DNA of 64,000 nucleotides from an uncultured virus (IMG/VR IMGVR_UViG_3300042866_001241) (lineage: Duplodnaviria; Heunggongvirae; Uroviricota; Caudoviricetes), in IMG/VR virus record IMGVR_UViG_3300042866_001241; one strand, 5' to 3'. The notes beneath the pieces were generated by a model. The model searched no databases and was not told the DNA's origin. It saw nothing but the letters and a program-made list of their open reading frames with translations. The translations under genes were made by a program, and so were the position numbers. This document shows, in pieces, positions 1,682 to 47,600 of this stretch. Each line of letters begins with the position of its first letter. Within the stretch, counting starts at the first letter, position 1.

Positions 1682-2166
1682 GCTGCTGTCGGTTGGTTCT
1701 TTGCTCGTTCCTGTACTGCCATACGCTCCATGTAGTTCGTATGGTTCTGCTCGTGCCGAAGGTCGGCTATCTCCTGCTGCATGGAGGAGAGTACCTGCTT
1801 GGTGGAGTCGATCATGCTGGAGATCAGTTCGTAGTCGCTCTCGTCCTCTGTCTCCTGCTTACGGCGCTGGAGAACGTGGTCGAGGGATTCGGTCTGAGCT
1901 TCGAGCATGTTCATTGGGCGCTTCTTGGTGGCGGACTTGTCCTCTTCGATGGCCCTGCTTATTTCCCTGGCAATGGCGTACTTCCGGTACACGTAGGACA
2001 GGGACTTCTTGCCGTATGCTTGCTTGATGTGGGCGGTAAGGCGGAAGAGGTGAACAGCGAGGTCACGGCGCAACTCGATCAGTGCCGGTAGGTGGTGATG
2101 CTGGGAGTGGTAGGTGTCTACTACGGCCGTCATGTGGTCGATGATGCGTTGTGCCTCGCTGTTCAT
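1678..2166 (-). CDS. Hypothetical helical protein
   Basis: MNSEAQRII..., ATGA overlap with the next gene. Confidence 0.7.
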   Translation of the reverse strand: MNSEAQRIIDHMTAVVDTYHSQHHHLPALIELRRDLAVHLFRLTAHIKQAYGKKSLSYVYRKYAIAREISRAIEEDKSATKKRPMNMLEAQTESLDHVLQRRKQETEDESDYELISSMIDSTKQVLSSMQQEIADLRHEQNHTNYMERMAVQERAKNQPTAA

Positions 2167-2171
2167 GGCTC

Positions 2172-2579
2172 TTACAGTGAGATTGCGATGCTGTCCTTTC
2201 CGTTCGTCCACTTCGCAGGCTCGATGACCTCTCCGGTCGTCTCGTCCACCACCTGCTCCCCTTTCTGCATCATCACCTGTGCTGCATACTTGTGGACCTC
2301 CTGCTTCGCCTTGACCTGCTTCTCCAGGAGGGCGATGGCGGGGATGTGGGAGTAGCTGTACGTGGTGCGGCCGGGGTACTTCTTGATGGTAGCCCCGTCG
2401 ATGGTCACCTCTTGGCTGGCGTGGCGTTCTTGATGCTCCTGCACTGCGAGTTCCTTGACCGCCTCGTAGTCCTCGGTCAGCTTCTCCAGCATGCGCCGGA
2501 GAAGTACCACTGCCTGCAATGCGCTCCGGTTGCCGTTCTCAGCTTCCTGCCGAATGATCGTGCTGCTGCTGTTGCTCAT
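2172..2579 (-). CDS. Hypothetical phage protein
   Basis: 135 aa ORF in operon, ends with VDETTGEVIEPAK motif common in phage proteins. Confidence 0.7.
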   Translation of the reverse strand: MSNSSSTIIRQEAENGNRSALQAVVLLRRMLEKLTEDYEAVKELAVQEHQERHASQEVTIDGATIKKYPGRTTYSYSHIPAIALLEKQVKAKQEVHKYAAQVMMQKGEQVVDETTGEVIEPAKWTNGKDSIAISL

Positions 2580-2883
2580 GTTGCTGATTGTTGATGTGAT
2601 GGATGATGGACGGGCTGATCTTCACCTTGACCCGCTTGCGGGCAGGTATCTCGATGCTGGTGGTGAACCCGTATCCCGCTCGGCCGACCTTGGCCTTGGA
2701 CATATACGGGGTCATGGACATCAGGCCCCTGATCTCTACCTCATTGCCATGGGCAAGGGCATCGGCCAGGATTTCGGTGATGTGGTCGATGATCTTCTTG
2801 CCCATCTCCTTGGAGATGTCGTTGCGGTACGACAACTGGCGGGCAAGGTAATCTTTGGTGATCGTGGTCTTTACGGTGCTCAT
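2539..2883 (-). CDS. HU/IHF-family DNA-bending protein
   Basis: ITKDYLARQLS...ILADALAHGNEVEIRG...IEIPARKRVKVKIS follows the HU/IHF pattern. Confidence 0.85.
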   Translation of the reverse strand: MSTVKTTITKDYLARQLSYRNDISKEMGKKIIDHITEILADALAHGNEVEIRGLMSMTPYMSKAKVGRAGYGFTTSIEIPARKRVKVKISPSIIHHINNQQHEQQQQHDHSAGS

Positions 2884-2886
2884 GGC

Positions 2887-3705
2887 TCAGAAGGGGAGAT
2901 CGCTTGGGTCTTCTTCCTCCATGCCGGCACCGTCGAACGGGTTGTCGTCTGCGATGGCTGCTGCCGTCTGCAATGCCTGCTGCACGTTTGCCGGAACGGT
3001 GCTTGTCTGATGCACCGGCTGCTGGGTGGGCACCGGGGCGGGCACGGCTGCGTTCGCGGCGTTGATGTTCTTGTACAGCACAGCGATACCGTTCTCGTTC
3101 AGGTAGCGGTCACGGTCGAGGAATGTCCACACATCCTTGCCGTCCACCGGGTTGACCACCTTCTTGCCCGGAGGCAGGCCACCATTGCCGTTCACATCGT
3201 TCTTCCAGTTGTTCTCCTTGGTCCAGTGCCGACCAACGTTCTGCCCACCCTGCACAGGCATCAACAGGTTGTTGATCTTGCCGGTCTTCTCGTCCTTGAT
3301 GGAATAGGGCTTGAGCTTGACGACCTTGGAGGGGTCGATGTTGGGAGCACGCATGGCGAAGTCCACCCAATATCGGTCGCCCTTCTGCACGGTGACGATG
3401 GCGGTGCCGCTCTCGTCCTGGATGGTGATCTCCATCACCTCGTCGATGCGGTTGCCTAGACGCGGATACTCCACGTACTCGATGTTGGTGATGCGACCGG
3501 AAACGTAGTCGTAGTGTGCGTGCCACACCTCGTTGCCGTTCTTGTCCACCACTGGCGCTCCGTCATTGCGGAATGCCTGCACTGCTCCGGGTGTTCCCTT
3601 GGGAACCTTCATGCCGAAGACCGCCTTCTCTCGACCCTGCTGGTCCCGACCCTTGCGGATGGAGAAATAGGTCTTGTAGGTTCTCTCTTCTTGTCCGTAT
3701 GCCAT
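2887..3705 (-). CDS. Putative single-stranded DNA-binding protein
   Basis: 272 aa, beta-rich core, P/Q/A linker, acidic tail ending EEEDPSDLPF. Confidence 0.6.
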   Translation of the reverse strand: MAYGQEERTYKTYFSIRKGRDQQGREKAVFGMKVPKGTPGAVQAFRNDGAPVVDKNGNEVWHAHYDYVSGRITNIEYVEYPRLGNRIDEVMEITIQDESGTAIVTVQKGDRYWVDFAMRAPNIDPSKVVKLKPYSIKDEKTGKINNLLMPVQGGQNVGRHWTKENNWKNDVNGNGGLPPGKKVVNPVDGKDVWTFLDRDRYLNENGIAVLYKNINAANAAVPAPVPTQQPVHQTSTVPANVQQALQTAAAIADDNPFDGAGMEEEDPSDLPF

Positions 3706-3723
3706 CGTTGTTGGGTTGTTGGG

Positions 3724-4125
3724 TTAGTCCTTACGGTTGATGTGTGCTTCCATGGACTTCGCTGCCAGCTTCAGGGTCACGGCGTAGTCCTTCACCGGCT
3801 TGCCTGCCCACTGAGGGTCGCGCTGCATCAGCGTGTCCGCCATCTTCAGTGCCTCGATGCGTACGTAGGCCGTGTCCCTGTCGGTGACAGCATCTGCCGG
3901 GGCGTGGTGGATGCGGGCGATGCCGTTCTTGGTGAAGGTGGCGTAGTAGGCGTACTCCTTGCCGACCTCCCACGGAAGCGGGTCTGCTTCCGGGTGCCAG
4001 ACCATGCCTCGTCCCCCATCGCTGAAGGCAAGCATGTATCCTTGGATCTTCTTGGTCTTGTCCGCTGCCATGAACGGCTCTCCGTCCTTGACCACTTCAG
4101 TACAGGTGCCCTTGTTCGTTGTCAT
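3724..4125 (-). CDS. Hypothetical protein
   Basis: 133 aa ORF in the minus-strand operon. Confidence 0.65.
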   Translation of the reverse strand: MTTNKGTCTEVVKDGEPFMAADKTKKIQGYMLAFSDGGRGMVWHPEADPLPWEVGKEYAYYATFTKNGIARIHHAPADAVTDRDTAYVRIEALKMADTLMQRDPQWAGKPVKDYAVTLKLAAKSMEAHINRKD

Positions 4126-4420
4126 CGTGGTAGTTATTGTTGCTGTTGGGTTCGACGCCTGCTGACAGTAGCAGGCCGGTAAGTTCGAGGTTCGGTCGCT
4201 TGCTGTAAGCGAGTTCGAGCGCGTGGTTGTACTTGTCCAGTAGCTTGATCACCGACCGGAGCAACTGGCTTTCCGCTTCGTCCACCTGGGCCTGCATGAC
4301 CCTTGCGAGGGTAGGAGTGTCGGCACCTTCAAGGATGCTCTCCCTGATCGTTCGGTGAGATGCGTTGATCGCGTCCACCGTCTCCTGCTTGAGCAGGACT
4401 TGCTTGTTGCTGTTGTTCAT
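4097..4420 (-). CDS. Hypothetical protein
   Basis: 107 aa ORF with ACAGCA-type leader. Confidence 0.6.
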   Translation of the reverse strand: MNNSNKQVLLKQETVDAINASHRTIRESILEGADTPTLARVMQAQVDEAESQLLRSVIKLLDKYNHALELAYSKRPNLELTGLLLSAGVEPNSNNNYHDDNEQGHLY

Positions 4421-4562
4421 GGCGTTGCTGTGCTTTGATCATACATGGGGTCTTGCCCTGGAGGTAGGCTTGGCGGAAGAGAGCTTCATTGCGCTCGTCC
4501 ATTGTCTTGTGCCACCTTCGCTCCTCTTGAAGGGCAAGAAAGTACCGTCCTGATGCTGACAT
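4329..4562 (-). CDS. Hypothetical protein
   Basis: ATG just downstream of the promoter at 4582-4589. Overlaps the next gene. Confidence 0.45.
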   Translation of the reverse strand: MSASGRYFLALQEERRWHKTMDERNEALFRQAYLQGKTPCMIKAQQRHEQQQQASPAQAGDGGRDQRISPNDQGEHP

Positions 4563-4581
4563 TGTGCTGCTGTTGTGGCCT

Positions 4582-4589
4582 CAAAAGTA
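4582..4589 (-). promoter_or_regulatory. Bacteroidota -7 promoter box
   Basis: TACTTTTG on minus strand (TAnnTTTG), 20 nt before an ATG. Confidence 0.7.
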
Positions 4590-4624
4590 GTTACTTATGT
4601 GCGTCTCCGAACACCTGTTGAAAA

Positions 4625-4759
4625 CTATTCGTACAGGATGTGGGTGATGTACAGTATGGCTACCACTATCGTGGCTGAAGTGAGAGTTGCGGTCACGTAC
4701 TGGATGACCCACGGGCTGTCGTTGAGCAGCCAGGTGTATGCCCGGTAGATGGTTCTCAT
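4625..4759 (-). CDS. Small membrane protein (44 aa)
   Basis: MRTIYRAYTWLLNDSPWVIQYVTATLTSATIVVAILYITHILYE, one hydrophobic segment. Confidence 0.55.
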   Translation of the reverse strand: MRTIYRAYTWLLNDSPWVIQYVTATLTSATIVVAILYITHILYE

Positions 4760-4760
4760 G

Positions 4761-4874
4761 TTACTGGTATCTGCGCGGGCAAAGGAATGGCCCAAGCGCG
4801 TTGTTGATGCGTTGCTCGACGTGCCTCAGCCATGCACAGGCAGCGCCGAAGAGTATGCGAATGGTGAATGTCAT
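4761..4874 (-). CDS. Small hypothetical protein (37 aa)
   Basis: MTFTIRILFG..., abuts the next gene, ACAGCA leader. Confidence 0.45.
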   Translation of the reverse strand: MTFTIRILFGAACAWLRHVEQRINNALGPFLCPRRYQ

Positions 4875-4911
4875 GCGTTTGCTGTCGTTTGTAACCGTTT
4901 GTTGGACGGTA

Positions 4912-4938
4912 GTTGGGTTTATTTCGTAGTTAAGCCAC
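4912..4938 (+). other. attI-like recombination junction at the start of the cassette array
   Basis: GTTGGGTTTATTTCGTAG^TTAAGCCAC. Core GTT has no hairpin on its left. GTTAAGCCAC matches the rc of cassette 1 inverse core GTGGCCTAAC at 9/10. Confidence 0.6.
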
Positions 4939-5151
4939 ATTCGGAGGACTTGGAATATTCGTCCAGAACACAGGAGGCCAGCCCGTCCATGGATCAAGGT
5001 CGTCGTTGTCGAAGTACATGCCATCTTCATAGTACCCGACCTTGTACCAGTAGCCTCTTCGCTTATCGTTGTATGCGTACCCGGCAAAAAGCACCTCGGT
5101 CTTATCGGGTGGATTGCAGTCCACCATCTCTGTCCATTTTTCAGACTCCAT
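4930..5151 (-). CDS. Cassette 1: DUF551-like phage protein
   Basis: W...NPPDKTEVL...VGYY...FWTNIPSPP pattern. TAA lies in the core site. Confidence 0.7.
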   Translation of the reverse strand: MESEKWTEMVDCNPPDKTEVLFAGYAYNDKRRGYWYKVGYYEDGMYFDNDDLDPWTGWPPVFWTNIPSPPNVA

Positions 5152-5179
5152 GACTTTTGACTTTGAAGATTAAGAGAAC

Positions 5180-5248
5180 GTGGCCTAACTACAGCTTGCC
5201 GCCATGCAAATTGCACCGCACGGCGTCAAGCAATGTCCGTTACCCGCC
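5180..5248 (+). repeat. attC-like site 1
   Basis: GTGGCCTAAC taca GCTTGCCGCC ... GGCGTCAAGC aatgtcc GTTACCCGCC. Confidence 0.9.
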
Positions 5249-5533
5249 ATGTGAAGACTGCCACCGCTTGAACTTACGAACGGCGTTGCGATCGTTGATG
5301 GCGAAGCACTCGAACACCGTCTCTGACTTCAGCATTCGTTCACTGGAAAATTCGCCATTGGCCTTGAACCAATATGTCTTGCATCCGGCAGGTGGCCGCT
5401 CCTCTCGCTTCGGCGGCGGCCATACCTGCCGGGCCTCGTCGCCACGGCCAGTGAACATCATGCTTTCGCCGGGTGCCATGGCCATTGCCAGTGCCGCCAT
5501 CATCATCGCGTTGCCTTTCATCTTCGGGTTCAT
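5240..5533 (-). CDS. Cassette 2: hypothetical protein
   Basis: 97 aa, flanked by GTTACCCGCC / GGCGGGTAAC. Confidence 0.75.
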   Translation of the reverse strand: MNPKMKGNAMMMAALAMAMAPGESMMFTGRGDEARQVWPPPKREERPPAGCKTYWFKANGEFSSERMLKSETVFECFAINDRNAVRKFKRWQSSHGG

Positions 5534-5560
5534 GCTGGTAGCTTTAAGAGTTAAGAAAAC

Positions 5561-5631
5561 GGCGGGTAACTACAGCTTGCCGCAAGGCCAAATTGCACTG
5601 GCCCAGCGTCAAGCAATGTCCGTTATGCGGG
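5561..5631 (+). repeat. attC-like site 2
   Basis: GGCGGGTAAC taca GCTTGCCGC aa GGCCA...TGGCC ca GCGTCAAGC aatgtcc GTTATGCGGG. Confidence 0.9.
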
Positions 5632-5931
5632 ATCGAGAACAATGCCATACTTGTCGGCCACTACCTGAATAGCCAACTCCAAACCCACTTGAGGCGGCCC
5701 TGTTTCTCGTAAGAACGCAGCCTCCTTCTTCATCCACTGAAGCGCCCACTTCAAGTCGTCGTTCTTGTTCTTTTCCATCGCCGTCACTTCGCTCTCAGTG
5801 AATACTCGCTCGTGCTTGTCGTCGTGGATCACCAACGTAGCTGGGATGCCTCCGCTTTCTTCGCTGGTGAAGTTGGGCTTGTTCGAGGCCGTAGGCCAGT
5901 CTGTACTACCGTTGATCTTCGCTTGTGCCAT
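5623..5931 (-). CDS. Cassette 3: hypothetical protein
   Basis: 102 aa, flanked by GTTATGCGGG / CCCGCATAAC. Confidence 0.75.
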   Translation of the reverse strand: MAQAKINGSTDWPTASNKPNFTSEESGGIPATLVIHDDKHERVFTESEVTAMEKNKNDDLKWALQWMKKEAAFLRETGPPQVGLELAIQVVADKYGIVLDPA

Positions 5932-5981
5932 GTTGTGCGCGTTTAACCGTGTAACCTATTGACCTTCTGAAAGAGAACGAC

Positions 5982-6046
5982 CCCGCATAACAGTCGGGTT
6001 GCCGTTATTGAATGCACAACGGCAACCCGCCGAACCGTTGTATGCA
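5982..6046 (+). repeat. attC-like site 3
   Basis: CCCGCATAAC agt CGGGTTGCCGTT ... AACGGCAACCCG ccgaacc GTTGTATGCA. Confidence 0.9.
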
Positions 6047-6061
6047 AGCGAAAAGACAGAC

Positions 6062-6230
6062 GTTCGTGGTGTTGGTGGGGTTACCGTTGCCGGCAACAGG
6101 ATCGCTAAATCCTTCTGGTGCATATTGTCCTATGTCGGGTAGCTGTTCCGCGTCCTCTCGAACGCGGCCCTTTTGTGATTCTGCACCATGCGGCTTCCTC
6201 TTCGGCGTGCCGCCCACCAACACCAAGAAC
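6062..6230 (-). ncRNA. Cassette 4: ORF-less cassette, candidate structured RNA
   Basis: 18 bp terminal inverted repeat (6062-6079 vs 6213-6230, one mismatch) encloses several helices, including CCGCGTTC-GAGA-GGACGCGG on the minus strand. No credible ORF. Confidence 0.55.
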
Positions 6231-6242
6231 TCAAAGAACGCC

Positions 6243-6324
6243 TGCATACAACTACGTGTTGTCGCAACCTTCCCGCCCCGCAAATCTAACGCACGGCAGC
6301 GGCAACACTTGTCCGTTGTGCCCA
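6243..6324 (+). repeat. attC-like site 4
   Basis: TGCATACAAC tac GTGTTGTCGC ... GCGGCAACAC ttgtcc GTTGTGCCCA. Confidence 0.9.
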
Positions 6325-6330
6325 ATGCAA

Positions 6331-6558
6331 TTACAACCACTCCCCCTCGAACACCATCCCGCCACAGACCTGACCGTCCACACGGTGAAGCCTTGGGTAT
6401 CGAAACGAGCCATCGCCCCCGCGTGGAACACGGCCTGTTGAAATCCAGCCGCACACCTTACACCTAATGCGAAGAGGGGCACTGGGCACAACTACAGCTT
6501 GCCGCAACTGGCCTGCGTCTGTGTCCTTTGACAGCTTATTGTTCGGTTTGGTGTTCAT
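6331..6558 (-). CDS. Cassette 5: small Cys/His protein, start codon inside the attC loop
   Basis: MNTKPNNK...QLRQAVVVPS...RCKVCG...H...VCGG, flanked by GTTGTGCCCA / TGGGCACAAC. Confidence 0.65.
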   Translation of the reverse strand: MNTKPNNKLSKDTDAGQLRQAVVVPSAPLRIRCKVCGWISTGRVPRGGDGSFRYPRLHRVDGQVCGGMVFEGEWL

Positions 6559-6617
6559 CGGTTCTATGGGTGTTTGTGAGTAGGGCCAGCAGCGGCAAGC
6601 AATGTCCGTTAGCGGTC
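6483..6617 (+). repeat. attC-like site 5 (long loop)
   Basis: TGGGCACAAC taca GCTTGCCGC aa CTGGCC ... GGCCAG ca GCGGCAAGC aatgtcc GTTAGCGGT. Confidence 0.9.
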
Positions 6618-6620
6618 ATG

Positions 6621-6842
6621 CTAAACAGACTTCCGAGAACAATCATCTTTGCAATACATTTGAATATTTGAACTGCGATATTCTTCAAGTGAAATTGTTT
6701 TAACTTGTAAATCGTATTTCATAACTTCTTTTGCAAATTCATTCTTGCTTTTAGTGTCCATTGTATGTTCAACCGCTACACGAATAGCATTATTACACTC
6801 GGGACAAACACTCATTTTAATTTTTACGTCTTTATCTTCCAT
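6621..6842 (-). CDS. Cassette 6: AT-rich CxxC-containing hypothetical protein
   Basis: 73 aa with CPEC...CKDDC, flanked by GTTAGCGGT / ACCGCTAAC. Confidence 0.75.
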   Translation of the reverse strand: MEDKDVKIKMSVCPECNNAIRVAVEHTMDTKSKNEFAKEVMKYDLQVKTISLEEYRSSNIQMYCKDDCSRKSV

Positions 6843-6866
6843 TTTACTTTGATTTGAGAAGCACGA

Positions 6867-7004
6867 ACCGCTAACAAGTGCTATACAATATGGCGGCTGA
6901 CGTGCTTCGATTAAACATTTGTTTTTAATTCAACTTTGGTGCTTCGTATTGGTCTTTTGTACTGAAAATCCGCCACATCGTATAGCACCGATACGTTCTG
7001 CGCC
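6867..7004 (+). repeat. attC-like site 6 (AT-rich, long)
   Basis: ACCGCTAAC aa GTGCTATACAATATGGCGG ... CCGCCACATCGTATAGCAC cgatac GTTCTGCGCC. Confidence 0.9.
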
Positions 7005-7010
7005 ATGCAA

Positions 7011-7268
7011 TTACAACTCACGAGCGCGGATCATCGCATCGGCCAGCCTGTAAGCATCTACTGCCAAGTGCATTTGCCAGTCTGCGTCCCACTGGTTTTT
7101 CGCGTTGGCCTGATCCGCATATTGCCTGTACACCTCTGGCATCAGCTTCGCGGCCATGTAGTCTCTCAGCGTCATGCCCGGCTCTGCATATTGTGCGCGT
7201 TCGCCGTTGTTCATCGTGCTGCTTTCTTGGACCGGAAAGGCCGATCCTCCTGTGTTCGTTGTGCTCAT
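7011..7268 (-). CDS. Cassette 7: widespread small phage protein (GGxAFP...GMTLRDY family)
   Basis: TGGSAFPV...GMTLRDYMAAK...AYRLADAMIRAR. Confidence 0.8.
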   Translation of the reverse strand: MSTTNTGGSAFPVQESSTMNNGERAQYAEPGMTLRDYMAAKLMPEVYRQYADQANAKNQWDADWQMHLAVDAYRLADAMIRAREL

Positions 7269-7317
7269 CGTTGTTTGTGTTACTTGTTCAACTTACTGAC
7301 CTACCGAAAAAGAGCAC

Positions 7318-7380
7318 GGCGCAGAACAGCGTGGTTGGCGGCATTGAAACGACCGCCAACCGCGCGGATCGTTAGGCCAC
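7318..7380 (+). repeat. attC-like site 7
   Basis: GGCGCAGAAC a GCGTGGTTGGCGG ... CCGCCAACCGCGC ggatc GTTAGGCCAC. Confidence 0.9.
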
Positions 7381-7608
7381 ATTCAATGCCGACTTGTGAC
7401 GCCACGCAGCATCTCGTACATCTCCGGCCCAATGACCACTATCCGCACACCATAGGTTAATTGTCCCGGCATCTCGAATTTCCTTGGTCTGTGCCATTTT
7501 TGCAGCAAAGCACTTGAATCCGCACTCAGGACACATCGGGATCATATCAGCTGCTTTCATTGCGCTTAAAAAGTCTTCCGTCGATTTGCTCAGTTTATAT
7601 TCATCCAT
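7372..7608 (-). CDS. Cassette 8: zinc-ribbon-like hypothetical protein
   Basis: CPECG...WCADSGHW, TAA in core site, flanked by GTTAGGCCAC / GTGGCCTAAC. Confidence 0.75.
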   Translation of the reverse strand: MDEYKLSKSTEDFLSAMKAADMIPMCPECGFKCFAAKMAQTKEIRDAGTINLWCADSGHWAGDVRDAAWRHKSALNVA

Positions 7609-7637
7609 GACCTTTTGATTTGAAAGTTAAAGAGAAC

Positions 7638-7700
7638 GTGGCCTAACTACGTGTATACGCCACCCAGAGCGGCGGCGCATACACTTGTTCGTTATACGCA
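7638..7700 (+). repeat. attC-like site 8
   Basis: GTGGCCTAAC tac GTGTATACGCC ... GGCGCATACAC ttgttc GTTATACGCA. Confidence 0.9.
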
Positions 7701-7703
7701 ACC

Positions 7704-7943
7704 TTAGTAACCCGCATTGACACGAATTGCAGTTGCTTCATAAATTAATCGTTCACGAATAAATCCATCAACGAAATAATCTCTACATTGGTCTAATACC
7801 CATAATTGGTCATCTTCTGACCATTCGGCAGCATCCATAAAAGCAAGAAAGCTATCTACGATTATTTCTGCTTGGTGTTCGTCTTTTGCCCACTCGATTA
7901 ATTTATCAGTAAGCGTTTGTCTTAGTTGTGATAATTGACTCAT
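7704..7943 (-). CDS. Cassette 9: AT-rich acidic hypothetical protein
   Basis: 79 aa, flanked by GTTATACGCA / TGCGTATAAC. Confidence 0.75.
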   Translation of the reverse strand: MSQLSQLRQTLTDKLIEWAKDEHQAEIIVDSFLAFMDAAEWSEDDQLWVLDQCRDYFVDGFIRERLIYEATAIRVNAGY

Positions 7944-7953
7944 AATAAAAGGC

Positions 7954-8055
7954 TGCGTATAACAGCGTGTTTATGCAAGCGGGCGGACAGCTTGCGGTTA
8001 ATATTTAAGTTCGTGTTATGCCCGCCTGACATAAACACGCAAAACGTTCTGCGCC
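7954..8055 (+). repeat. attC-like site 9
   Basis: TGCGTATAAC a GCGTGTTTATGCAAGCGGGC ... GCCCGCCTGACATAAACACGC aaaac GTTCTGCGCC. Confidence 0.9.
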
Positions 8056-8061
8056 ATGCAA

Positions 8062-8295
8062 TTACGACAGAAGCTCTCGGCGGATCTCCACTTCCATCGC
8101 TTCGAGAATTGGTATCAGTTGCCCGACCACTTCAGGCGGGCACTTGAAACACTGGCCCGTGCGGTTTACGCGGGCGGTGTAGTGTTCGGTCCAGTATTTC
8201 TTCGGCTTCCAGAACTCCCACCACTTTCGTGTGTGATCGAGCCTCGTGCAAGTGATGGTCACGAGGTTGTACATGTCTATGATCTTGTTGCTCAT
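8062..8295 (-). CDS. Cassette 10: hypothetical protein
   Basis: 77 aa with KWWEFWK motif, flanked by GTTCTGCGCC / GGCGCAGAAC. Confidence 0.75.
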   Translation of the reverse strand: MSNKIIDMYNLVTITCTRLDHTRKWWEFWKPKKYWTEHYTARVNRTGQCFKCPPEVVGQLIPILEAMEVEIRRELLS

Positions 8296-8348
8296 CTGCT
8301 GGGTTTTACGAGTTTAACCTTGTCACCTACTGACCGAAGAAAAAGCAC

Positions 8349-8427
8349 GGCGCAGAACCACCGCTATACGGCATGCCCGCAGCACGGGCCGACGCTTCGC
8401 ACGCCGCATAGCTCTGTCCGTTACCCC
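8349..8427 (+). repeat. attC-like site 10
   Basis: GGCGCAGAAC cacc GCTATACGGC ... GCCGCATAGC tctgtcc GTTACCCC. Confidence 0.85.
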
Positions 8428-8864
8428 GCCATTTCCTTTTCAGAAGAGAGTGTTGCTACTTCTTCTGCCAGTGTCGTCATGTCGTACACCAGCATCTTGA
8501 TACTGGACTCAAGGCTGCTGATTTTCGCCTCCAGGTCGGTCAGTGTCCCTTCATCCTCCTCGGTCTTTGCTGCCTCCATCTTTGCTATCTGCACCTTGTC
8601 GGCCGGAAGGACGGCTGCGACGAATGCCCGTAGCCCTACTTCTGGAGCCTTGGCGTCAACGGGAACGATACCTACTCCCACCAACTCCAGCATCTTGATG
8701 ACCGATGACAAGGTAACACGGGACTCGGGATCGTAGAAACTGGCGATGACCTTGTTCTGATGGTGGGAAGTGGGTCCGATGCGTCCCGATATGTACGACC
8801 TGGATACCTTCTCTCGGATACGTGCGTCCTCGAAAGTCTTGATAATGGCAAGGCGTGGGTTCAT
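8421..8864 (-). CDS. Putative XRE-like HTH regulator with C-terminal coiled coil
   Basis: MNPRL...ARIREKVSRSYISGRIG...VTLSSVIKMLELVG resembles an HTH. Promoter box upstream. Stop overlaps the last GTT core. Confidence 0.55.
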   Translation of the reverse strand: MNPRLAIIKTFEDARIREKVSRSYISGRIGPTSHHQNKVIASFYDPESRVTLSSVIKMLELVGVGIVPVDAKAPEVGLRAFVAAVLPADKVQIAKMEAAKTEEDEGTLTDLEAKISSLESSIKMLVYDMTTLAEEVATLSSEKEMAG

Positions 8865-8953
8865 GGGTATGTGTTGGTGTAAAGCAGAAACGGCGGGATC
8901 AGTGAAGACCCCGCCGTTCGGACAGCAACAGGCGCACAGCAATACGCCGGGGT

Positions 8954-8961
8954 CAAATGTA
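8954..8961 (-). promoter_or_regulatory. Bacteroidota -7 box upstream of the regulator and cassette array
   Basis: TACATTTG on minus strand. Confidence 0.65.
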
Positions 8962-8974
8962 AGGAAGGAATTGG

Positions 8975-9292
8975 TTACTCGGTGCTCAGCTTGGCGGATT
9001 GTTGAAGGATTGAGCGGATGTGTGGCGGGGCTGCTGTGATGTCCGGCCATGAAAAAGCGATGCTGCGCTTCAGGGTATCTCCTTCGATGAACGCTTTGTT
9101 GGTGCGCGTGAATGTGTCAGTTCCACGGGCGCTGTGCTTCCTGAAGTAGCCCTTCTTTGCAGCCCGTTTCCAGTGATCACGAGCATTGTCGTATCTCCAC
9201 TGCCAGGTCAACGTGTACTGTTCTCCGGGCTTCATGCGGCACATGACCTCAAGATGGTTGGTTCCGTGCTCGTGCTTTCGCTTGTACCTCAT
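8975..9292 (-). CDS. Basic hypothetical protein
   Basis: 105 aa ORF in operon. Confidence 0.55.
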   Translation of the reverse strand: MRYKRKHEHGTNHLEVMCRMKPGEQYTLTWQWRYDNARDHWKRAAKKGYFRKHSARGTDTFTRTNKAFIEGDTLKRSIAFSWPDITAAPPHIRSILQQSAKLSTE

Positions 9293-9295
9293 GGC

Positions 9296-9484
9296 TCAGT
9301 AGTCTCCTGACAGGTATTCGATGACGCACGGCTTCTCGATGTTCACCTCAGTGACCAGGATGTCCTCGGTGTGCTTCACCGTATCCTTGGCTATCTTGGT
9401 AGCTGTGCGCTTGTCCGGCGCTGCAATGACAAGGCAGCATCCGACCGGGAACATAGGCTTGAAATCAACCTTGTAAATCTTCAT
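9296..9484 (-). CDS. Hypothetical protein
   Basis: MKIYKVDF..., ATGA overlap. Confidence 0.65.
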   Translation of the reverse strand: MKIYKVDFKPMFPVGCCLVIAAPDKRTATKIAKDTVKHTEDILVTEVNIEKPCVIEYLSGDY

Positions 9485-9696
9485 GGCTTGGGCTTGTTTG
9501 GTTCTTTGTCGAAGTAGCGATGGAAGGTGTCGCTCGATGACATGACCAGAATGACGAGCGGATACACTATCCAGCACGTCCATGCTGGCACGCTACCCAT
9601 TCCTACCGGGTAAATCCATACCATGCCCACCCCAACTATCGCTAACGACGTGAAGGTGTACAGCATGAACAGTGCGTTGCGTACTATTTCCCTCAT
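9481..9696 (-). CDS. Two-TM membrane protein
   Basis: MREIVRNALF..., two hydrophobic helices, ATGA overlaps. Confidence 0.65.
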   Translation of the reverse strand: MREIVRNALFMLYTFTSLAIVGVGMVWIYPVGMGSVPAWTCWIVYPLVILVMSSSDTFHRYFDKEPNKPKP

Positions 9697-9989
9697 GGCT
9701 TGGGGTATTTGGCTAGGATGGCGCGGGCTTTTGCCGTGCAATCTGTGAGATTGATTACAAGAGTGTCGTTCGGCGATCGCTTTCCGGCGATGTACTCTCT
9801 AGCATCAAGTGCCGCATCGTGCAGTTCTGCAATCGCCTCCCGCAACTCATCACGCTCATCGGCGATGGGCTGGGCTACTTCGCGGATGGCGGCGGCGTAA
9901 GCGTCCTCTATTTCCCAATAATTGCGATACGCGGGGCCGATTGTAAACCGCTTCGCGGCCAACCCATCAGCGTTCAGTTTGGTGCTCAT
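9693..9989 (-). CDS. Hypothetical protein
   Basis: MSTKLNADG..., ATGA overlaps. Confidence 0.65.
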   Translation of the reverse strand: MSTKLNADGLAAKRFTIGPAYRNYWEIEDAYAAAIREVAQPIADERDELREAIAELHDAALDAREYIAGKRSPNDTLVINLTDCTAKARAILAKYPKP

Positions 9990-10273
9990 GCTGCGATATG
10001 GATGGGTTTCTTGCGAAGGACTTTCAGCTTGTATCCCCGGCACGTCAGTTCGTGGTACAAATCTTCGTACTCATGCTCCTCGGCCGGTCGGGTGGCTGCG
10101 ATGGTGCCTGTGTAGTCTGCTTCGCCGTGCTGTCCGACGTGCTGGTAGGACTGAACGAAGCCTCGGTTGGCATCACCGGACTCGTAATTGAGGCCGGGGA
10201 ACAGGGCGATCACGTTTCCTCCGTCCTTGTATACCCGGAAGATGACAAGGGTTTCGTGGGTGTCGGGTGTCAT
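9986..10273 (-). CDS. Conserved small phage protein
   Basis: VIFR...VIALFP...SYQHVGQHGEA...EYEDLYHEL..RGY motif family. Confidence 0.75.
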   Translation of the reverse strand: MTPDTHETLVIFRVYKDGGNVIALFPGLNYESGDANRGFVQSYQHVGQHGEADYTGTIAATRPAEEHEYEDLYHELTCRGYKLKVLRKKPIHIAA

Positions 10274-10485
10274 TGCTGCTGCTGTTTGGTAGTGGTGTAT
10301 GGTAGTCCGAAGATGATGTGCTCTGCCCGGACAAGTCCTGCGTGTATCAAGTCGAGGCATGCGCTGTGGCGCTTCACCCCTTGTCCTGCGCTTCCGTAGA
10401 CGACTACGCCTCGCTGCGCTATCTCAGCCCGGAAGTTTATGAGGCCGTGGATGCCAGTCCCGCATCTGTTGGTGGTGTGTCCCAT
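10270..10485 (-). CDS. Hypothetical protein
   Basis: 71 aa, fills a gap in the operon, ATGA overlap. Confidence 0.5.
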   Translation of the reverse strand: MGHTTNRCGTGIHGLINFRAEIAQRGVVVYGSAGQGVKRHSACLDLIHAGLVRAEHIIFGLPYTTTKQQQQ

Positions 10486-10489
10486 GATG

Positions 10490-10801
10490 TCAGGATTTGA
10501 GTGACTCCATGAGCTTGTGTCCGTTCTTCATGGCCTCCCAGGGCTGTCCGCTTTCGCTCAGGAAAAACTCCTTGTCGCGTTGGATCAGCATAGCCGCCAA
10601 GGTGTCCAGTGCCTTGTGGTACTCCTGCAACTGGTTCACCAGGTCGGGGTATGCGTTCCATCGGCGGACCATTTCTGCGGCGAACTTGCCTTCGTGGTCG
10701 TCTTTAATGATGGCCTTGGTTTCTCCGGTTTCTTCCACGAAAAGAAGCACTTGGCTACGTGGATATATCATGGTCTGTAACTTCAGCTTGCTCGTGTCCA
10801 T
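10490..10801 (-). CDS. Hypothetical phage protein
   Basis: MDTSKLK...AAEMVRRWNAYPDLV. Confidence 0.65.
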   Translation of the reverse strand: MDTSKLKLQTMIYPRSQVLLFVEETGETKAIIKDDHEGKFAAEMVRRWNAYPDLVNQLQEYHKALDTLAAMLIQRDKEFFLSESGQPWEAMKNGHKLMESLKS

Positions 10802-11110: not shown

Positions 11111-11905
11111 TTACAGTGCCGGTGCTGCCTCCCTGTATGCCTGCGGGACGTGGGATTTGATCCATGCCTTCAGGCGTGCGAAGTGCGCGTTCATGGCCTT
11201 GGTGCGCTCCTTCTGCTCCTTGGCCTTGGCGTGCTCAATGTGTGCATCGACGGCTGAACGTGCCTCCTGCACAACGTACATTTTCTCGGCCGGGTACGTC
11301 TCGGTTTCGATGAACCCCCAACAGGATCCATCTTCGATCTCGTTGCCGTCCTGGTCCTCAATGGTGAACCCGAAGATGTCGTTCCATGCCCATGCACCGT
11401 ACTCCTTGGCGTTGGCCTCCATGGACTCGTACGTGGCGTCCTTTTTCTCAACGCCAGTGGTCTTGGCGAACTCAGGTGTCCACACTACCAACAGGTCCAT
11501 GTAGTCGCCCTGGCTGTATCCTATGCTGCTGGTGTTCAGGCACGGAACGCCAAGGATTTTGCCTACTGCCTCCAACGTATCGTAGTCGTGCTCACGGATA
11601 GCGTCTCCAATGGCTTCGGTTACGGCGTTCTCCGTGTCGTTGGCCGTATCCCCTTCACCCTGGCTCACATTCAGTAGCTCCATCAGGGCCTTCTTGTGGC
11701 GTCGGTACTGGTTCGTGGTGGGATAGAACGCTGCGCTGGCATCAAGGTAGTCGTACCTGTCGTGGCGTCCACCGTCCACCATCATGGGGTACATGCCGTC
11801 ATTGTTCTCATATGGATTGAGCGATCCGCTGTCTTGGTCCTGGTGGATCTTGATGGTGAACCCTTTGTAGTCCTCCTCGTGTACTGGTTGCTGCTGGTAA
11901 CACAT
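11111..11905 (-). CDS. Conserved acidic phage early protein (GYSQGD motif)
   Basis: 264 aa, IGYSQGDY...YGAWAWNDIFGF...SCWGF, own promoter. Confidence 0.75.
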   Translation of the reverse strand: MCYQQQPVHEEDYKGFTIKIHQDQDSGSLNPYENNDGMYPMMVDGGRHDRYDYLDASAAFYPTTNQYRRHKKALMELLNVSQGEGDTANDTENAVTEAIGDAIREHDYDTLEAVGKILGVPCLNTSSIGYSQGDYMDLLVVWTPEFAKTTGVEKKDATYESMEANAKEYGAWAWNDIFGFTIEDQDGNEIEDGSCWGFIETETYPAEKMYVVQEARSAVDAHIEHAKAKEQKERTKAMNAHFARLKAWIKSHVPQAYREAAPAL

Positions 11906-42677: not shown

Positions 42678-44606
42678 ATGGACGAGGAGGAGTTGAAGCA
42701 ACTCATGCTGAATGTAGGGTCTGGCGGAAATCAAGCCGCTACACAGCAGGAGCTTTCTTCTGCAATGTCTGGCATGCGTTCAGGCGGAACGCCTATGGCG
42801 GACCCGTTTGCCATGGTACAGCCTGTTCGGTATATCACCCCAGAAGAAGAGGTGACGCTCCTCGACGACATGAGCAATATGCCCCCTGAGTTGCAGGGTG
42901 CGGAGGCTTATGGCCCTGAGCCTATTGACACTACTGCTCCTGCTATTCCAGAAGAAGTCATTCAGCCTGGTATGGAGCAGCAGCCGGTTGACCCGGTTCA
43001 ACAACCGGCCAATCAGCCCCGTGGACGCCGGCCCTTCAAGATGGATGTCAGCGCCCCGGAGTTCAATCAGAACTACCGGTACACGCAGCAGGACTTCTAC
43101 GGACAGCAGCGCCCCATCTCCACCACCGATGCGGTAGGTGGCGCATTGCACTTCCCGCAGGCCGGACAGCTTCCGATGGCTATTTGGGCCAGCCGGATGC
43201 AGCAGCATCAGAAGCGCAAGGCAGAGGTGCAGGAGCGCATCAAGCAACTGCGTGACCTTGAGGTAGAGCCGACCGCCGACCCCTACCAGCAGTCCTTCGC
43301 CAAGACCGTAGGTTCTGCCAAGGACAGCTTCGTGAAGGCGCTTGCTGAGTCGTATGACGGTGACGAGAGCAAGGCGTGGATGGAGATCGGAACGGACGGC
43401 ACCGATGCGAACCGGAAGTGGCTTCAGCTACACCGGGACATGGAGGCGCTTGGGCAGTACGGCAAGTTCCTATGGGCGGATGCGAAGGACTACCGCAACC
43501 AAGCCAAGAACAACGAGATCTACTATACCCCCGAGACGCTCAAGCTGGCAGAGGACTTCTACTACGGCCTCGGAAACTTCAGGGGCGATGAGGGTATCGG
43601 CGACATCCACCAACTGACCAAGAACGCCGAGCGCCTGAGCCAGCGTATCAGCATCGAGCAGTTCGCCCAGAAGCAGTTGCTCCCCGGCATCAAGGACCGC
43701 TACGCCCGCTTCCAGGAGGCGAAGTTCTACATCGACCCGAATACCGGGCTGCGTGTGGAGCAGACCAACAAGAAGTACGATGCGAATACCTTCCTTGAGC
43801 AGGAGGCAAGGAACTACGCCCGCATGAACCCCATGGTGAGCGAGGCAGAGGCGCTGGACATCTTCAAGAAGATCATCCCGCCCGAACACTTCGAGATCAA
43901 CCTCGACAGCAAGATGCCGTCCGGCTCGGGCGGTGATGGTGGAGGCGGAACGGCAGGGGGCGGCATCTCGCTCGGCTTCGACTACCGGAAGACCGGACTG
44001 TATGACAAGGCAACCGGGAAGACCGTTGCTGGTGCTCAATCATTGCACTTCACTCCGTTCCAAGAAACGGGTGGCAAGCAGTATCCTGTGAAGGAGATGC
44101 AGGTATCGACAGGCGGAACGACTACCACGAGGCCAATGAGGGATGTCCAGCTTGTCTACGCTCCCGAGCAGGGCAAGTGGAGGCTTGTCGGGAAGATGCT
44201 CGATGAAGGAAGTGTAGAGAAACTGAACAACCTCATAAGCACTACGCAGTTTGACGTTTCCTCCAAGTCAGGTGCTGATGCGCTTGGCGTTCAGAAAGAG
44301 GTGGATCGCGTAGTAGACGAGTTCTGGAGGAAGAACGCGAAGTACAGTGCTGCTGATGCCGATGCGAACACCTCCGTTCTTGAGATGTACTGGAGGAGTG
44401 GCAACCCCGACCAGATGGTTGTCAACGAACTACGGCGCAAGGGTAGCAGGATGACGGTGGAGGATGTGCAGCAGAAGTTGCGCACCAAGGGAGGACGTGA
44501 CGAAATTGCCCGTATCCTTGGGGCGAACATCGAGTCCGGCCAGCCGGCACAGGGAGCACCCGCTCCGGCCACCAATGCAAGCGACCCACTCGGAATACTT
44601 GACTGA
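42678..44606 (+). CDS. Putative ejected (internal virion) protein
   Basis: 642 aa, P/Q-rich N-terminus, ends DPLGILD. Confidence 0.65.
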   Translation: MDEEELKQLMLNVGSGGNQAATQQELSSAMSGMRSGGTPMADPFAMVQPVRYITPEEEVTLLDDMSNMPPELQGAEAYGPEPIDTTAPAIPEEVIQPGMEQQPVDPVQQPANQPRGRRPFKMDVSAPEFNQNYRYTQQDFYGQQRPISTTDAVGGALHFPQAGQLPMAIWASRMQQHQKRKAEVQERIKQLRDLEVEPTADPYQQSFAKTVGSAKDSFVKALAESYDGDESKAWMEIGTDGTDANRKWLQLHRDMEALGQYGKFLWADAKDYRNQAKNNEIYYTPETLKLAEDFYYGLGNFRGDEGIGDIHQLTKNAERLSQRISIEQFAQKQLLPGIKDRYARFQEAKFYIDPNTGLRVEQTNKKYDANTFLEQEARNYARMNPMVSEAEALDIFKKIIPPEHFEINLDSKMPSGSGGDGGGGTAGGGISLGFDYRKTGLYDKATGKTVAGAQSLHFTPFQETGGKQYPVKEMQVSTGGTTTTRPMRDVQLVYAPEQGKWRLVGKMLDEGSVEKLNNLISTTQFDVSSKSGADALGVQKEVDRVVDEFWRKNAKYSAADADANTSVLEMYWRSGNPDQMVVNELRRKGSRMTVEDVQQKLRTKGGRDEIARILGANIESGQPAQGAPAPATNASDPLGILD

Positions 44607-47600
44607 TGAAAAAGCAGCCAGAGCAGCAGCCTCTTGGTACGGTTTCGGATCTCGGGAAAAAGGTCAAGGCCAAGTACCCCGGCGTCTACGACAGCCTGCC
44701 CGACGAAGAGGTAGGAAGGAAGGTCAAGCAGAAATACCCTGGAGCCTATGATGGCTTCGTGGATGACGTTCAGCCTACCCAACCGGCACCCATGGGAAAG
44801 CCGGAAGCCCCTTCACCCCAAGCGCCTTCCTTGGAAGGTGGTGGAGGGGCTGCGCCTATGCCGTGGGATACGCAGTTGCTTACACCTCAGCAGCCTACCG
44901 AGCAGGATACCGTGCAGGCTCCGATGGCGAAGTACCAACTCGCCCCTGAAGAAACCGTTGCTCCACCCGCAAAAGCAACCGTATCCAAGTCAGTTCATAG
45001 TGAGCTGGTTGATGTTTCGCGTGAAAGAACCCAGCAGGCAGAGGAACGCCGCACATTCAACACGCTGTATGGCGACAAGACGCTTGATGAAATCAAGCGC
45101 GTGAAAGAGGAGTACATCCCTCAGCAGATGAAATTGCTCCGTGGTTCCGAGCAGGTTTTCCTGGTTGATCAGAAGCAACTCGACGAGGCTGTTGCAAAGT
45201 TGGAGCAGCGCAAAATCGGGATGGAACAGCAGATTGCTGAGAACCCATCGCTTGCCCCGCAGCTTCAGGCAGAGTACGAGCAGGAGTTCAACATGCTCAA
45301 GGGCATGGATGATGAACTCAAGAAGCAGTACGCTCAAATCGAGGCGCTCAGGAAGAAGGTCGAACTCGACTCCAAGCTGTCAGGCATCCGAGAGTACGAA
45401 CTCAAAAGCAAGCAGGGTAACTTCGTTGGGGCTACATGGAACAACATGCTCAGCGGGGTAGGCTCAGCCGTGACGGGGTTCAATATGCCACTCATCAATG
45501 CGGTGATTGCGTTAGACCCTCCCAAGCCAAGGGAGGGAGAGACGCAGGACCAAGCCAACAACCGTCTGCGCAATAGCTTCAGGCAGGCGATGCGTGCTGT
45601 CCCCGAGCAGATTGCTGGTGACGAAGGCACCACTAAGGAGTACACGTCTGAGATGAAGGAGAGCTTCCTCGGCGGTGCATGGCTTTCAGCTACTGAAAGT
45701 CTGCCCCTGATGCTCCTTGGACCTGGTGGCCTTGGTCAGATGACAAAAGCCGCTGACAACGTGATGCAGGAGATGGAGGGCGAGGAGTTCGCCAACATTC
45801 CTGAGTGGAAGAAGGCGTTGTTCGCTTCGTCGGTCGGCGTGGTCGTTGGTCAGCTTGAGCGGGTTGGTCTTCAGCAGGCTGTTGGAGGAGGCACCATGGC
45901 ACGTACCATCCTCGGCAACGTGTTCAAGAAGCTGCCTCAGAACGCCACCAATGCTCAGTTCCAGCGGTTGCTGGCAGCAGAAACGAGCAGCGCACTGGCA
46001 AACGCTGGATCGCGGCTTGGAGGCGCTATGCTGTCCGAGGCAGCAACCGAACTCCAGCAGGGCATCGCAGAGCCAACAATGAAGGAACTGTTCAATAGGG
46101 CAGAGGAGAAGAACCTCCTCGACGTGAACAAGGACTACAAGAAGGGATTCGACACACCGGCCAGCCTATCCGACCTCGTTGGAGAGGCTGTGTATCAGGC
46201 TGGTCAGGGTGCTATTGGTGGTGCGATATTCGGAAGCTACAACGCCGTAGGCTCATTGTTCAAGACAGCATCGGTAGGCAAGACGGCGAACAATGTGCAG
46301 TACGAGGTGACGGAGGAGTTGCTTCGTGACCCGGAGTTCGAGCGTGCCATGATCGAAGACCTGAAGATGCAGGTCGAGTCCGGCAAGCTGACAGAGGCGA
46401 AGGTCGCTGACATCACGGCTACCTGGAAGGAGGCGCAGAAGGTCGTTGAGCAAATCCCCGAAGACCTCAAGGTTGAAACGAGGAAGCAAGCGTTCGACCT
46501 GCTCACAGAGAAGGCCCAACTGAAGAAGAAAGACCCGGCATTGGTAGGCGACAGGATCGCAGCCATTGACGCCAAGCTCGCTGAACTCTCAGGACAGAAG
46601 CCGGAAGAGGTTTCTGAAGAAGCCGCCCCGGAGGTTGAAGTTATCGAAGAGGCTCCGGCTACCGGGCGCGACACTGAACTCGACACCGAAATCGCCGCAG
46701 TTCAGCAGAAGGAACAGCAGCCAAAGGGCACCCCTGAACCCGACCCCGTTACGATGGAGTGGGAAGGGGATGCCGTCCAGCCGAAGCAACCTACCACCAC
46801 AGCAGATGAAGGAAGTACAACGGACATTCAAGAACCGATTGTTGGTTCTCAGCAAGAAGGAAGTAATGCTCAGGGTGCAGCAATCGTATCCGAGCCTGTT
46901 TCACCTACCACAACAACAGATGCAGAACGGACAACACAGCAGCAACCAGCCGAAGGGACAACCGATCGGCCCGCCGCAGCACAAGCGCCCCAGGATACAG
47001 GCAGTCCGGCCGGTGTTCCGGTGGAAGAACGACCAGCGGTAAGCGACTACTACGTACAGCCCAAACTGACCAAGGACGTATCCGACGACCCCGTTGCCCT
47101 CGCTTCCGCCTACATGGAGGAGGACATCATGGCAAAGGATGGTTCATCCCTTGACGACCAAATAGGGACGCTGGTGCGTAACAACATCAGCGAGGCTTCT
47201 TTCAGGCAGTTCGGGGATGTGAACAAGATCTCCAAGGACATGAAGCGTGCATACCTCCGGAAGGATGGTGGGCGCGAACTTGACGACCTTGCTGAAGAGG
47301 CTTCGAGCATGTCCGGAACGGAGGTGACCCCGGACGACATCGTTGAATACGTGTACCGCAACCCGTGGGGACGCCAAACATCGGATCGGTCCAAGGAGCT
47401 TGCTGACAGGTACTACGGCATCACGGGCAAGCGCATGAACAGCCTTGTTGCCAAGAGCATTCTTGGCGGCAAGAACACGAAGTGGAAGCCGGATGAAAAG
47501 GCAATCGTTGACGCTGCTCAAGCAGCACAGGTTGACCTGTCTGAAATCAGCGATGACGACATCAATGAGTTCGATAGCATGTCGGACGACGACATCGACA

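Follow-up and report, generated by a model that had tools for sequence, protein, structure and literature searches.

A probable attI-type docking site at the end of a reversed-polarity cassette array in an uncultured phage

The DNA analyzed (“the window”) is a stretch of 64,000 nucleotides from an uncultured virus of the Caudoviricetes (IMG/VR record IMGVR_UViG_3300042866_001241). Genes for a P22-type portal, an amidase endolysin, an HU-like protein and a 3459-aa polyvalent protein mark it as phage DNA. Coding is on the minus strand for the first ∼20 kb and switches to the plus strand after that, and no tRNA genes were found in the window. The 3459-aa ORF (44606-54985) looks like a polyvalent protein of the type that is injected or packaged by large phages, its match to ART-PolyVal (ADP-ribosyltransferase) being sub-threshold (E 1.5e-5, 26.2 bits versus a cut-off of 31.2). 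The features of the locus are given below, where a caret marks a crossover point.

4761..4874, minus: first gene downstream of the array, a 37-aa ORF (the “4874 gene”) with no family match
4875..4916, minus: leader of that gene, with box 1 (GTCGTTTG at 4884-4891 and TTGGACGG at 4902-4909)
4917..4931, plus: proposed docking-site core (box 2), GTTTATTTCGTAG^TT, crossover between G4929 and T4930
4930..5239, minus: unit 1, ORF 4930-5151, hairpin 5187-5241
5240..5622, minus: unit 2, ORF 5240-5533, hairpin 5568-5624
5623..6037, minus: unit 3, ORF 5623-5931, hairpin 5989-6039
6038..6315, minus: unit 4, short and of doubtful coding capacity, hairpin 6250-6317
6316..6608, minus: unit 5, ORF 6331-6558, which starts inside its own hairpin, 6490-6610
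6609..6995, minus: unit 6, ORF 6621-6842, long-loop hairpin 6873-6997
6996..7371, minus: unit 7, ORF 7011-7268 (phrog_2201), hairpin 7325-7373
7372..7691 and 7692..8046, minus: units 8 and 9, missing as one block in two lake runs
8047..8420, minus: unit 10, ORF 8062-8295, hairpin 8356-8422, last G^TT
8421..8867, minus: upstream gene (148 aa), whose TAA stop at 8421-8423 holds the TT of the last crossover point

The array occupies 4930-8420 and consists of 10 units, each with a small minus-strand ORF and, to the right of it, an imperfect AAC...GTT hairpin. Read along the plus strand, a unit begins with TT and a 7-nt core, continues through the minus-strand ORF to the inverted core and AAC, and ends with the G of the imperfect hairpin. 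In every unit the inverted core (9-10 nt) would complete the hairpin stem if the unit were circular. A parser demanding a 10-nt inverted core plus a hairpin recovered exactly 10 units between 4930 and 8420, the same bounds as those assigned in a preliminary description made from the letters alone; it also found no partner for the last core (GTTACCCC at 8420), as that description had reported. When the 10-nt inverted cores had to be perfect, this unit signature had nine plus-strand matches in the 64 kb, eight of them inside the array. Imperfect hairpins closed by AAC/GTT are present in 10 of 10 window units, and 34 distinct hairpins of this kind were collected across all loci.

For units 1, 2, 3 and 8 and for the upstream gene, the TAA stop codon of the ORF is the TTA at the crossover. 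The preliminary description had removal of 4930-8420 joining the stop codon of a regulator to the leader of the 4874 gene. The TTA at 8421-8423 is a stop codon, but “regulator” has no family support, as ORF 8421-8867 gave no match in Pfam, PHROGs or PDB. PDB sequence searches with this ORF and with ORFs 2887-3705 and 11111-11905 returned nothing below E 0.1. At the ends of window units, motifs are kept beyond the 7-nt cores: left ends often read CAT(T/G)CAATTAC, which holds the ORF stop in units 7 and 10, and right ends read AAGAGAACG ahead of the core. These conserved ends are common to unrelated ORFs; two different methylases, in loci L126 and L137, have the same ends and the same hairpin. 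Against Rfam, 3500-9500 gave a single match, to SECIS and sub-threshold, and locus L111 matched no family.

Relatives were sought with several probes. A blastn search of 4400-9000 against 50,697 phage records gave no match, and the flank proteins ORF 8421-8867 and ORF 2887-3705 led to no IMG/VR locus. A 15-nt arm pattern matched 107 loci, one of which had a true hairpin. A pattern derived from one hairpin type gave four IMG/VR contigs, an ascertainment that is independent of the docking site, and all four carry arrays built like that of the window. Among these is G001, whose 54-kb genome is complete and has terminal repeats. Comparison of its proteins with those of the window gave just three weak matches, and the three proteins belong to no informative family. 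Metagenome contigs were then scanned with a pattern for the site, yielding 23 loci. Cassette-type cores come next to the site in 15 of these, and at least one complete unit was parsed in 12 of the 15. The remaining eight look like chance and were set aside: six represent a single AT-rich sequence that lacks units and has the same right flank each time, and L121 and L132 are singletons. Finally, the window's stretch 2500-10500 is present in 24 lake-water runs, and Logan contigs of four lake runs were aligned to it; note that contigs hide rare variants and the strand that is cut.

When GTDB representative genomes were searched with the hairpin pattern, one match was obtained (L115), a 2.6-kb contig in a 0.9-Mb MAG labelled as an archaeon. 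It carries an array fragment with three hairpins and larger ORFs. The best recombinase in this MAG is Xer-like and falls below the IntI cut-off, and L115 is probably a phage contig misbinned into the MAG.

Several further observations concern the arrays of relatives. The ORF of unit 10 (8062-8295) has an 80.5% identical homologue in IMG/VR contig L109 (4699-4929), where it lies in an ordinary operon with no hairpins around it. In this contig (19.6 kb) the site-proximal first cassette occurs twice, at 1-130 and 6740-6960, as inverted copies, and the remainder of the array is inverted relative to the site with the break within the 5′ leader of the cassette; the cause is an assembly fold-back or else a genuine inversion. 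Locus L111 contains a ∼250-nt repeat with two internal hairpins (8300-8560 and 10555-10800), which flanks the far end of the array, recurs 2 kb away and has no Rfam family match. In the four lake runs, the bin 6772-7038, which holds the hairpin of unit 6 (E6), has a summed contig depth of 12-72 versus ∼3-12 in neighbouring bins, and many contigs continue from it into unlike sequence; the E6 hairpin type is widespread in those lake communities.

The left end of the array, 4917-4931, is without a hairpin. The minimum free energy of 4870-4938 as DNA is −6.3 kcal/mol on the plus strand and −4.0 kcal/mol on the minus strand, and 21 and 86 of 200 shuffles, respectively, fold as well, so that the leftmost core, G4929^TT4930, lacks a hairpin as first described. 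Box 2 has no second exact copy in the 64-kb window and is present as a single copy in the complete genome G001, at the array end only. In four of the four IMG/VR contigs found through their hairpins, GTTTATYYCSTAG^TT stands at the hairpin-less array end. Box 2 is likewise found at the array end in the 15 metagenome loci, which represent ∼8 backbone types with unrelated flanking genes, although conservation in these loci is partly by construction because the search pattern fixes the box. The genes that follow the site vary by backbone and encode NinG, a zinc-finger protein, a beta-helix protein, an HTH protein or glycosyltransferases. Upstream of box 2, relatives have no conserved AAC. A conserved non-hairpin box that occurs once per phage and has no upstream AAC is not what a decayed attC would leave, and it supports the reading of this sequence as an attI-type site proposed in the preliminary description. 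Of the motif proposed there for array starts, GTTG-N-CGTAGTT, the box itself does recur at array ends, but CCTAG is as frequent as CGTAG and the initial GTTG is not kept.

The same description had based its reading in part on a likeness between the left flank of the site and attC left arms, as would be expected if a folded attC mimics a double-stranded attI. The arms that it quoted are indeed the reverse complements of 6250-6268 and 6490-6508. We compared the 20-mer ending at 4931 with the 34 reverse-complemented left arms, using the other window 20-mers that end in GTT as controls. The mean likeness was 5.44/17, versus 4.36 ± 0.96 for the controls, 13.9% of which scored as well, and a best match as good (9/17) was obtained for 27% of controls; only 9 of 34 hairpins continue from AAC into TAC. 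The likeness is therefore at chance level, and the mimicry argument rests on a similarity that is not significant.

Box 1 (GTCGTTTG...TGGAYGG) is looser than box 2 and forms a stem of only 4-5 bp; it also recurs in relatives. There it is found 5-25 nt before the ATG of the next gene and at a variable distance from box 2, and for this reason it is probably the leader of that gene; it may also be an accessory part of the docking site. In contigs of two lake runs (X9 and X24) the match to the window's left flank ends at 4901, just before TTGGACGG, and the sequence is unlike beyond. The module of site plus array may itself be exchanged between backbones at 4901/4902.

Comparisons between loci assign each hairpin to the ORF on its left (plus-strand coordinates). 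L120 and L138 differ over unit 1 including its hairpin and are 100% identical over 127 nt from CG^TT onward. Unit 4 of the window has a homologous unit in G001 with the same right-hand hairpin and a different left-hand one, and unit 3 of L111 and unit 1 of L137 have body and right-hand hairpin in common at different positions in their arrays. In addition, several ORFs begin in the loop of the right-hand hairpin (for example, 6331-6558 in 6490-6610). The converse arrangement, in which the minus strand is taken as the top strand and a hairpin goes with the ORF on its right, is ruled out by the L120/L138 break and by the ORFs that start within the right-hand hairpin. In the direction of the genes, a cassette therefore reads hairpin-leader-ORF and points at the docking site. 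All cassette ORFs read towards the site with the hairpin 5′ of the ORF, which is not the orientation of integron cassettes.

Of the 34 hairpins, 32 fold better as the minus strand than as the plus strand (mean −3.9 kcal/mol; Wilcoxon 6e-7), as would be expected if the minus strand is exchanged at AA^C. In 31 of 34, this better-folding strand has its surplus unpaired bases on the AAC arm. The bottom strand of a classical attC has extrahelical bases on the arm opposite the cleaved AAC, according to the available text of PMC5027507. Because the unpaired bases of the phage hairpins occupy the other arm, the chemistry of recombination may differ from that of IntI.

Natural variants of the site carry different cassettes. 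Between L130 and L138, the 294 nt that end with GTT show 100% identity, and the sequences differ from there on. The same flank followed by a different first unit, with the break after GTT, was also found for L119/L125, L137 and L141, and for L112, L127, L136 and L140. Where L137 reads site-A-B-C, L141 reads site-D-C; beyond the differing units they have 1729 nt in common with two mismatches, both within the 56-nt hairpin before C. In L112, L127 and L140, both flanks are common (88-95% identity) and the units between them, 6, 2 and 2 in number, are different. In such alignments the junctions are fixed, and the array between them behaves like an insert that can be replaced.

Contigs of two of the lake runs record changes in the window's own array. 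A contig of run X21 matches 4242-4931 and then enters 158 nt of another cassette start. In both X21 and X24 a contig contains a joint from 7369 to 8045, by which 675 nt, exactly units 8 and 9, are lost; the position of this joint is ambiguous by four letters, although the two hairpins involved (E7 and E9) are unlike. A further run, X6, keeps the window's arrangement over 2714-6897. In these sequence comparisons, the turnover that is seen is concentrated at the docking-site end. The preliminary description had named addition of new cassettes at the other end as an observation that would speak against an attI at 4929; L137/L141, L120/L138 and X21 all place the turnover at the site.

The breaks at GTT in L120/L138, L130/L138, L112/L127/L140 and the lake runs put the point of cassette exchange, as reconstructed from these alignments, at G^TT on the plus strand (AA^C on the minus strand), in the docking site as well as where each hairpin ends on the right. 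This is the exchange point of integrons, and a non-hairpin primary site at the end where cassettes enter is likewise an integron feature; note that what is seen here are the products of exchange and not insertion itself. The empty junction that had been expected in related phages did not appear: it is absent among the 15 genuine sites, and no joint from 4929 to 8421 occurs in contigs of the four lake runs. No circular cassette junction was seen in the contig data.

No match to PF00589 was obtained in 72 + 104 ORFs of the window, which may be a partial genome, even when every frame of at least 110 aa was included. A six-frame search of the complete G001 gave no match to PF00589 or TIGR02249, 28 ORFs located downstream of the site in nine loci include no tyrosine recombinase, and two Xer/integrase queries had no phmmer match in 1749 frames. 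Nor does any remnant of a recombinase lie beside the site in the window or the related loci. Since neither the window nor G001 yielded a tyrosine recombinase, the cassette enzyme probably acts in trans. A contig classed as a provirus (G002) does encode a generic recombinase/integrase ∼88 kb from its array (39 bits versus a cut-off of 265). G001 encodes RecT, a YqaJ-type exonuclease and DnaB.

The host is presumed to belong to the Bacteroidota. Leaders are without Shine-Dalgarno motifs. In L112 (∼1880-1915, reverse strand) and in the right flank of L140, the gene strand carries TTTG-N20-TAGGTTTG, which we take to fit the Bacteroidota promoter consensus; it comes after a terminator-like hairpin, close upstream of the array's far end, and points into the array. 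A protein of 795-858 aa is among the few that are common to otherwise unrelated phages of this set (window 61078-63465; L112 4939-7431; L126 4909-7482; L140 378-2870; L144 4488-6983), and in three of them its gene is downstream of the docking site by a few hundred bases. It gives beta-helix and Ig hints (795 and 831 aa in the window/G001 pair), is probably a tail spike, and points to a common host group.

Cassette ORFs of relatives were scanned against Pfam on the gene-direction strand only, and 6 of 25 had a match above the curated cut-off: three N6/N4 DNA methylases, one C5 DNA methylase, one PAPS-reductase-like protein and one SpoU methylase. A seventh has a sub-threshold match to DUF551. 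The window's own ten cassette ORFs have no assignable function in Pfam or PHROGs, one of them matching phrog_2201.

Integrons are the textbook gene-capture device of bacteria; from phages, to our knowledge, only integrase-less attC clusters have been reported so far. The phage array resembles classical integrons in its one-gene cassettes, imperfect AAC...GTT hairpins and G^TT crossover, in cassette ends that would complete a stem in the circle, in a hairpin-less primary site at the end of highest turnover, and in the recombined strand being the better-folding one. It is unlike them in having no IntI in the window or in the complete relative, in genes that face the primary site, are preceded by the hairpin and in some cases start inside it, and in unpaired bases that are on the AAC arm. 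Moreover, no promoter is expected at the phage site, because expression comes from the far end.

Two phage systems are closer in setting. Qi et al. 2023 (PMC9892861), in the part available, describe 17 CALINs in phages with methyltransferase cargo, the attC sites of which were recombined by IntI1. Those clusters of attC-like sites in virulent phages are, like the present array, without an integrase and carry DNA methyltransferases; their main examples have the usual bacterial orientation, and the available text describes neither a conserved primary site nor a reversed design. The present array fits the CALIN layout (at least two attC-like sites in a row with no integrase nearby), the class being defined by the IntegronFinder model and the hairpins here being called by our parser. 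The nearest phage-specific idea, going by the available parts of PMC2839356 and PMC4122927, is that of the PeSL modules of T4-type phages, promoter-terminator repeats that are thought to act through homology. Common to both are small accessory genes in phage hyperplastic regions, bounded by stem-loops and shuffled between relatives. Unlike PeSL modules as described in those parts, the phage array has junctions fixed at G^TT that share 3-4 nt, and units with inverted cores. A PeSL junction may fall anywhere in the repeat, whereas the joint between E7 and E9 shares four letters. A full-text literature search found no description of a conserved phage docking site or of mirror-image cassettes.

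We consider it likely that 4917-4931 is the primary double-stranded attI-type docking site of an integron-like, reversed-polarity cassette platform of phages. Box 2 might instead be a chance secondary target with a plain GTT, the fossil edge of an array in which all later changes are between hairpins. Integron integrases can insert cassettes outside att sites (10.1101/2022.09.11.507474, in the part available), and there is no enzyme beside the site; set against this are the recurrence of one 13-15 nt box where the array ends, in ∼8 types of backbone whose neighbouring genes are unrelated, and the different first units that meet identical flanks exactly at GTT. The latter means that the box itself takes part in exchange, and we regard a chance target as improbable. 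The position of box 2 within the 5′ leader of the next gene, together with the resemblance of box 1 to C/A-rich leaders before other window genes, would suit an expression signal (a leader, coupling or termination element of the post-array gene) that binds no recombinase. This is quite improbable in our estimation, given that the window and G001 each have a single box 2, at the array end only, whereas leaders are many, and that every comparison has shared sequence giving way to differing sequence at the last three bases of the box.

Units could also be shuffled with no site-specific enzyme, by homologous recombination between promoter-like or terminator-like stem-loops as envisaged for PeSL modules. 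Hairpins and unit ends do form sequence families that are common to several arrays, and the RecT and YqaJ-type exonuclease of G001 also speak for it. The 675-nt deletion, however, joins unlike hairpins that share four letters, the site and the hairpins have only GTT in common, and every unit has the inverted core that is a mark of site-specific excision. Shuffling of this kind appears highly improbable.

The comparisons show a cassette to be the segment [TT-core ... minus-strand ORF ... core′-AAC-hairpin-G]. Under the docking-site reading, a tyrosine recombinase supplied in trans, most likely of the Xer type and from the presumed Bacteroidota host or from co-resident phages, would bring together the docking site and a circular cassette, the latter as its folded minus strand, and exchange strands within AAC. 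The incoming cassette would lie as hairpin-leader-ORF directed towards the site, become the last gene of the array, and be transcribed from the upstream phage promoters. The empty state would read ...TTTCGTAG^TTACCCC..., with the TAA stop of the upstream gene retained.

If this reading is correct, it adds to phage cassette clusters a defined primary site that is conserved across unrelated backbones, natural variants showing cassette exchange at that site, and a reversed architecture at odds with two rules that are held to set the orientation of integron cassettes. The 15-nt box would be a concrete substrate for finding the enzyme. We suggest, only tentatively, that unrelated lytic-type phages carry an enzyme-less landing pad, borrow a recombinase from their Bacteroidota host or from co-infecting phages, and swap counter-defence genes such as DNA methyltransferases; the mirror-image design might then be an independent solution in which cassettes are read from phage early promoters. 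Such a platform suggests how phages may quickly renew their anti-restriction genes.
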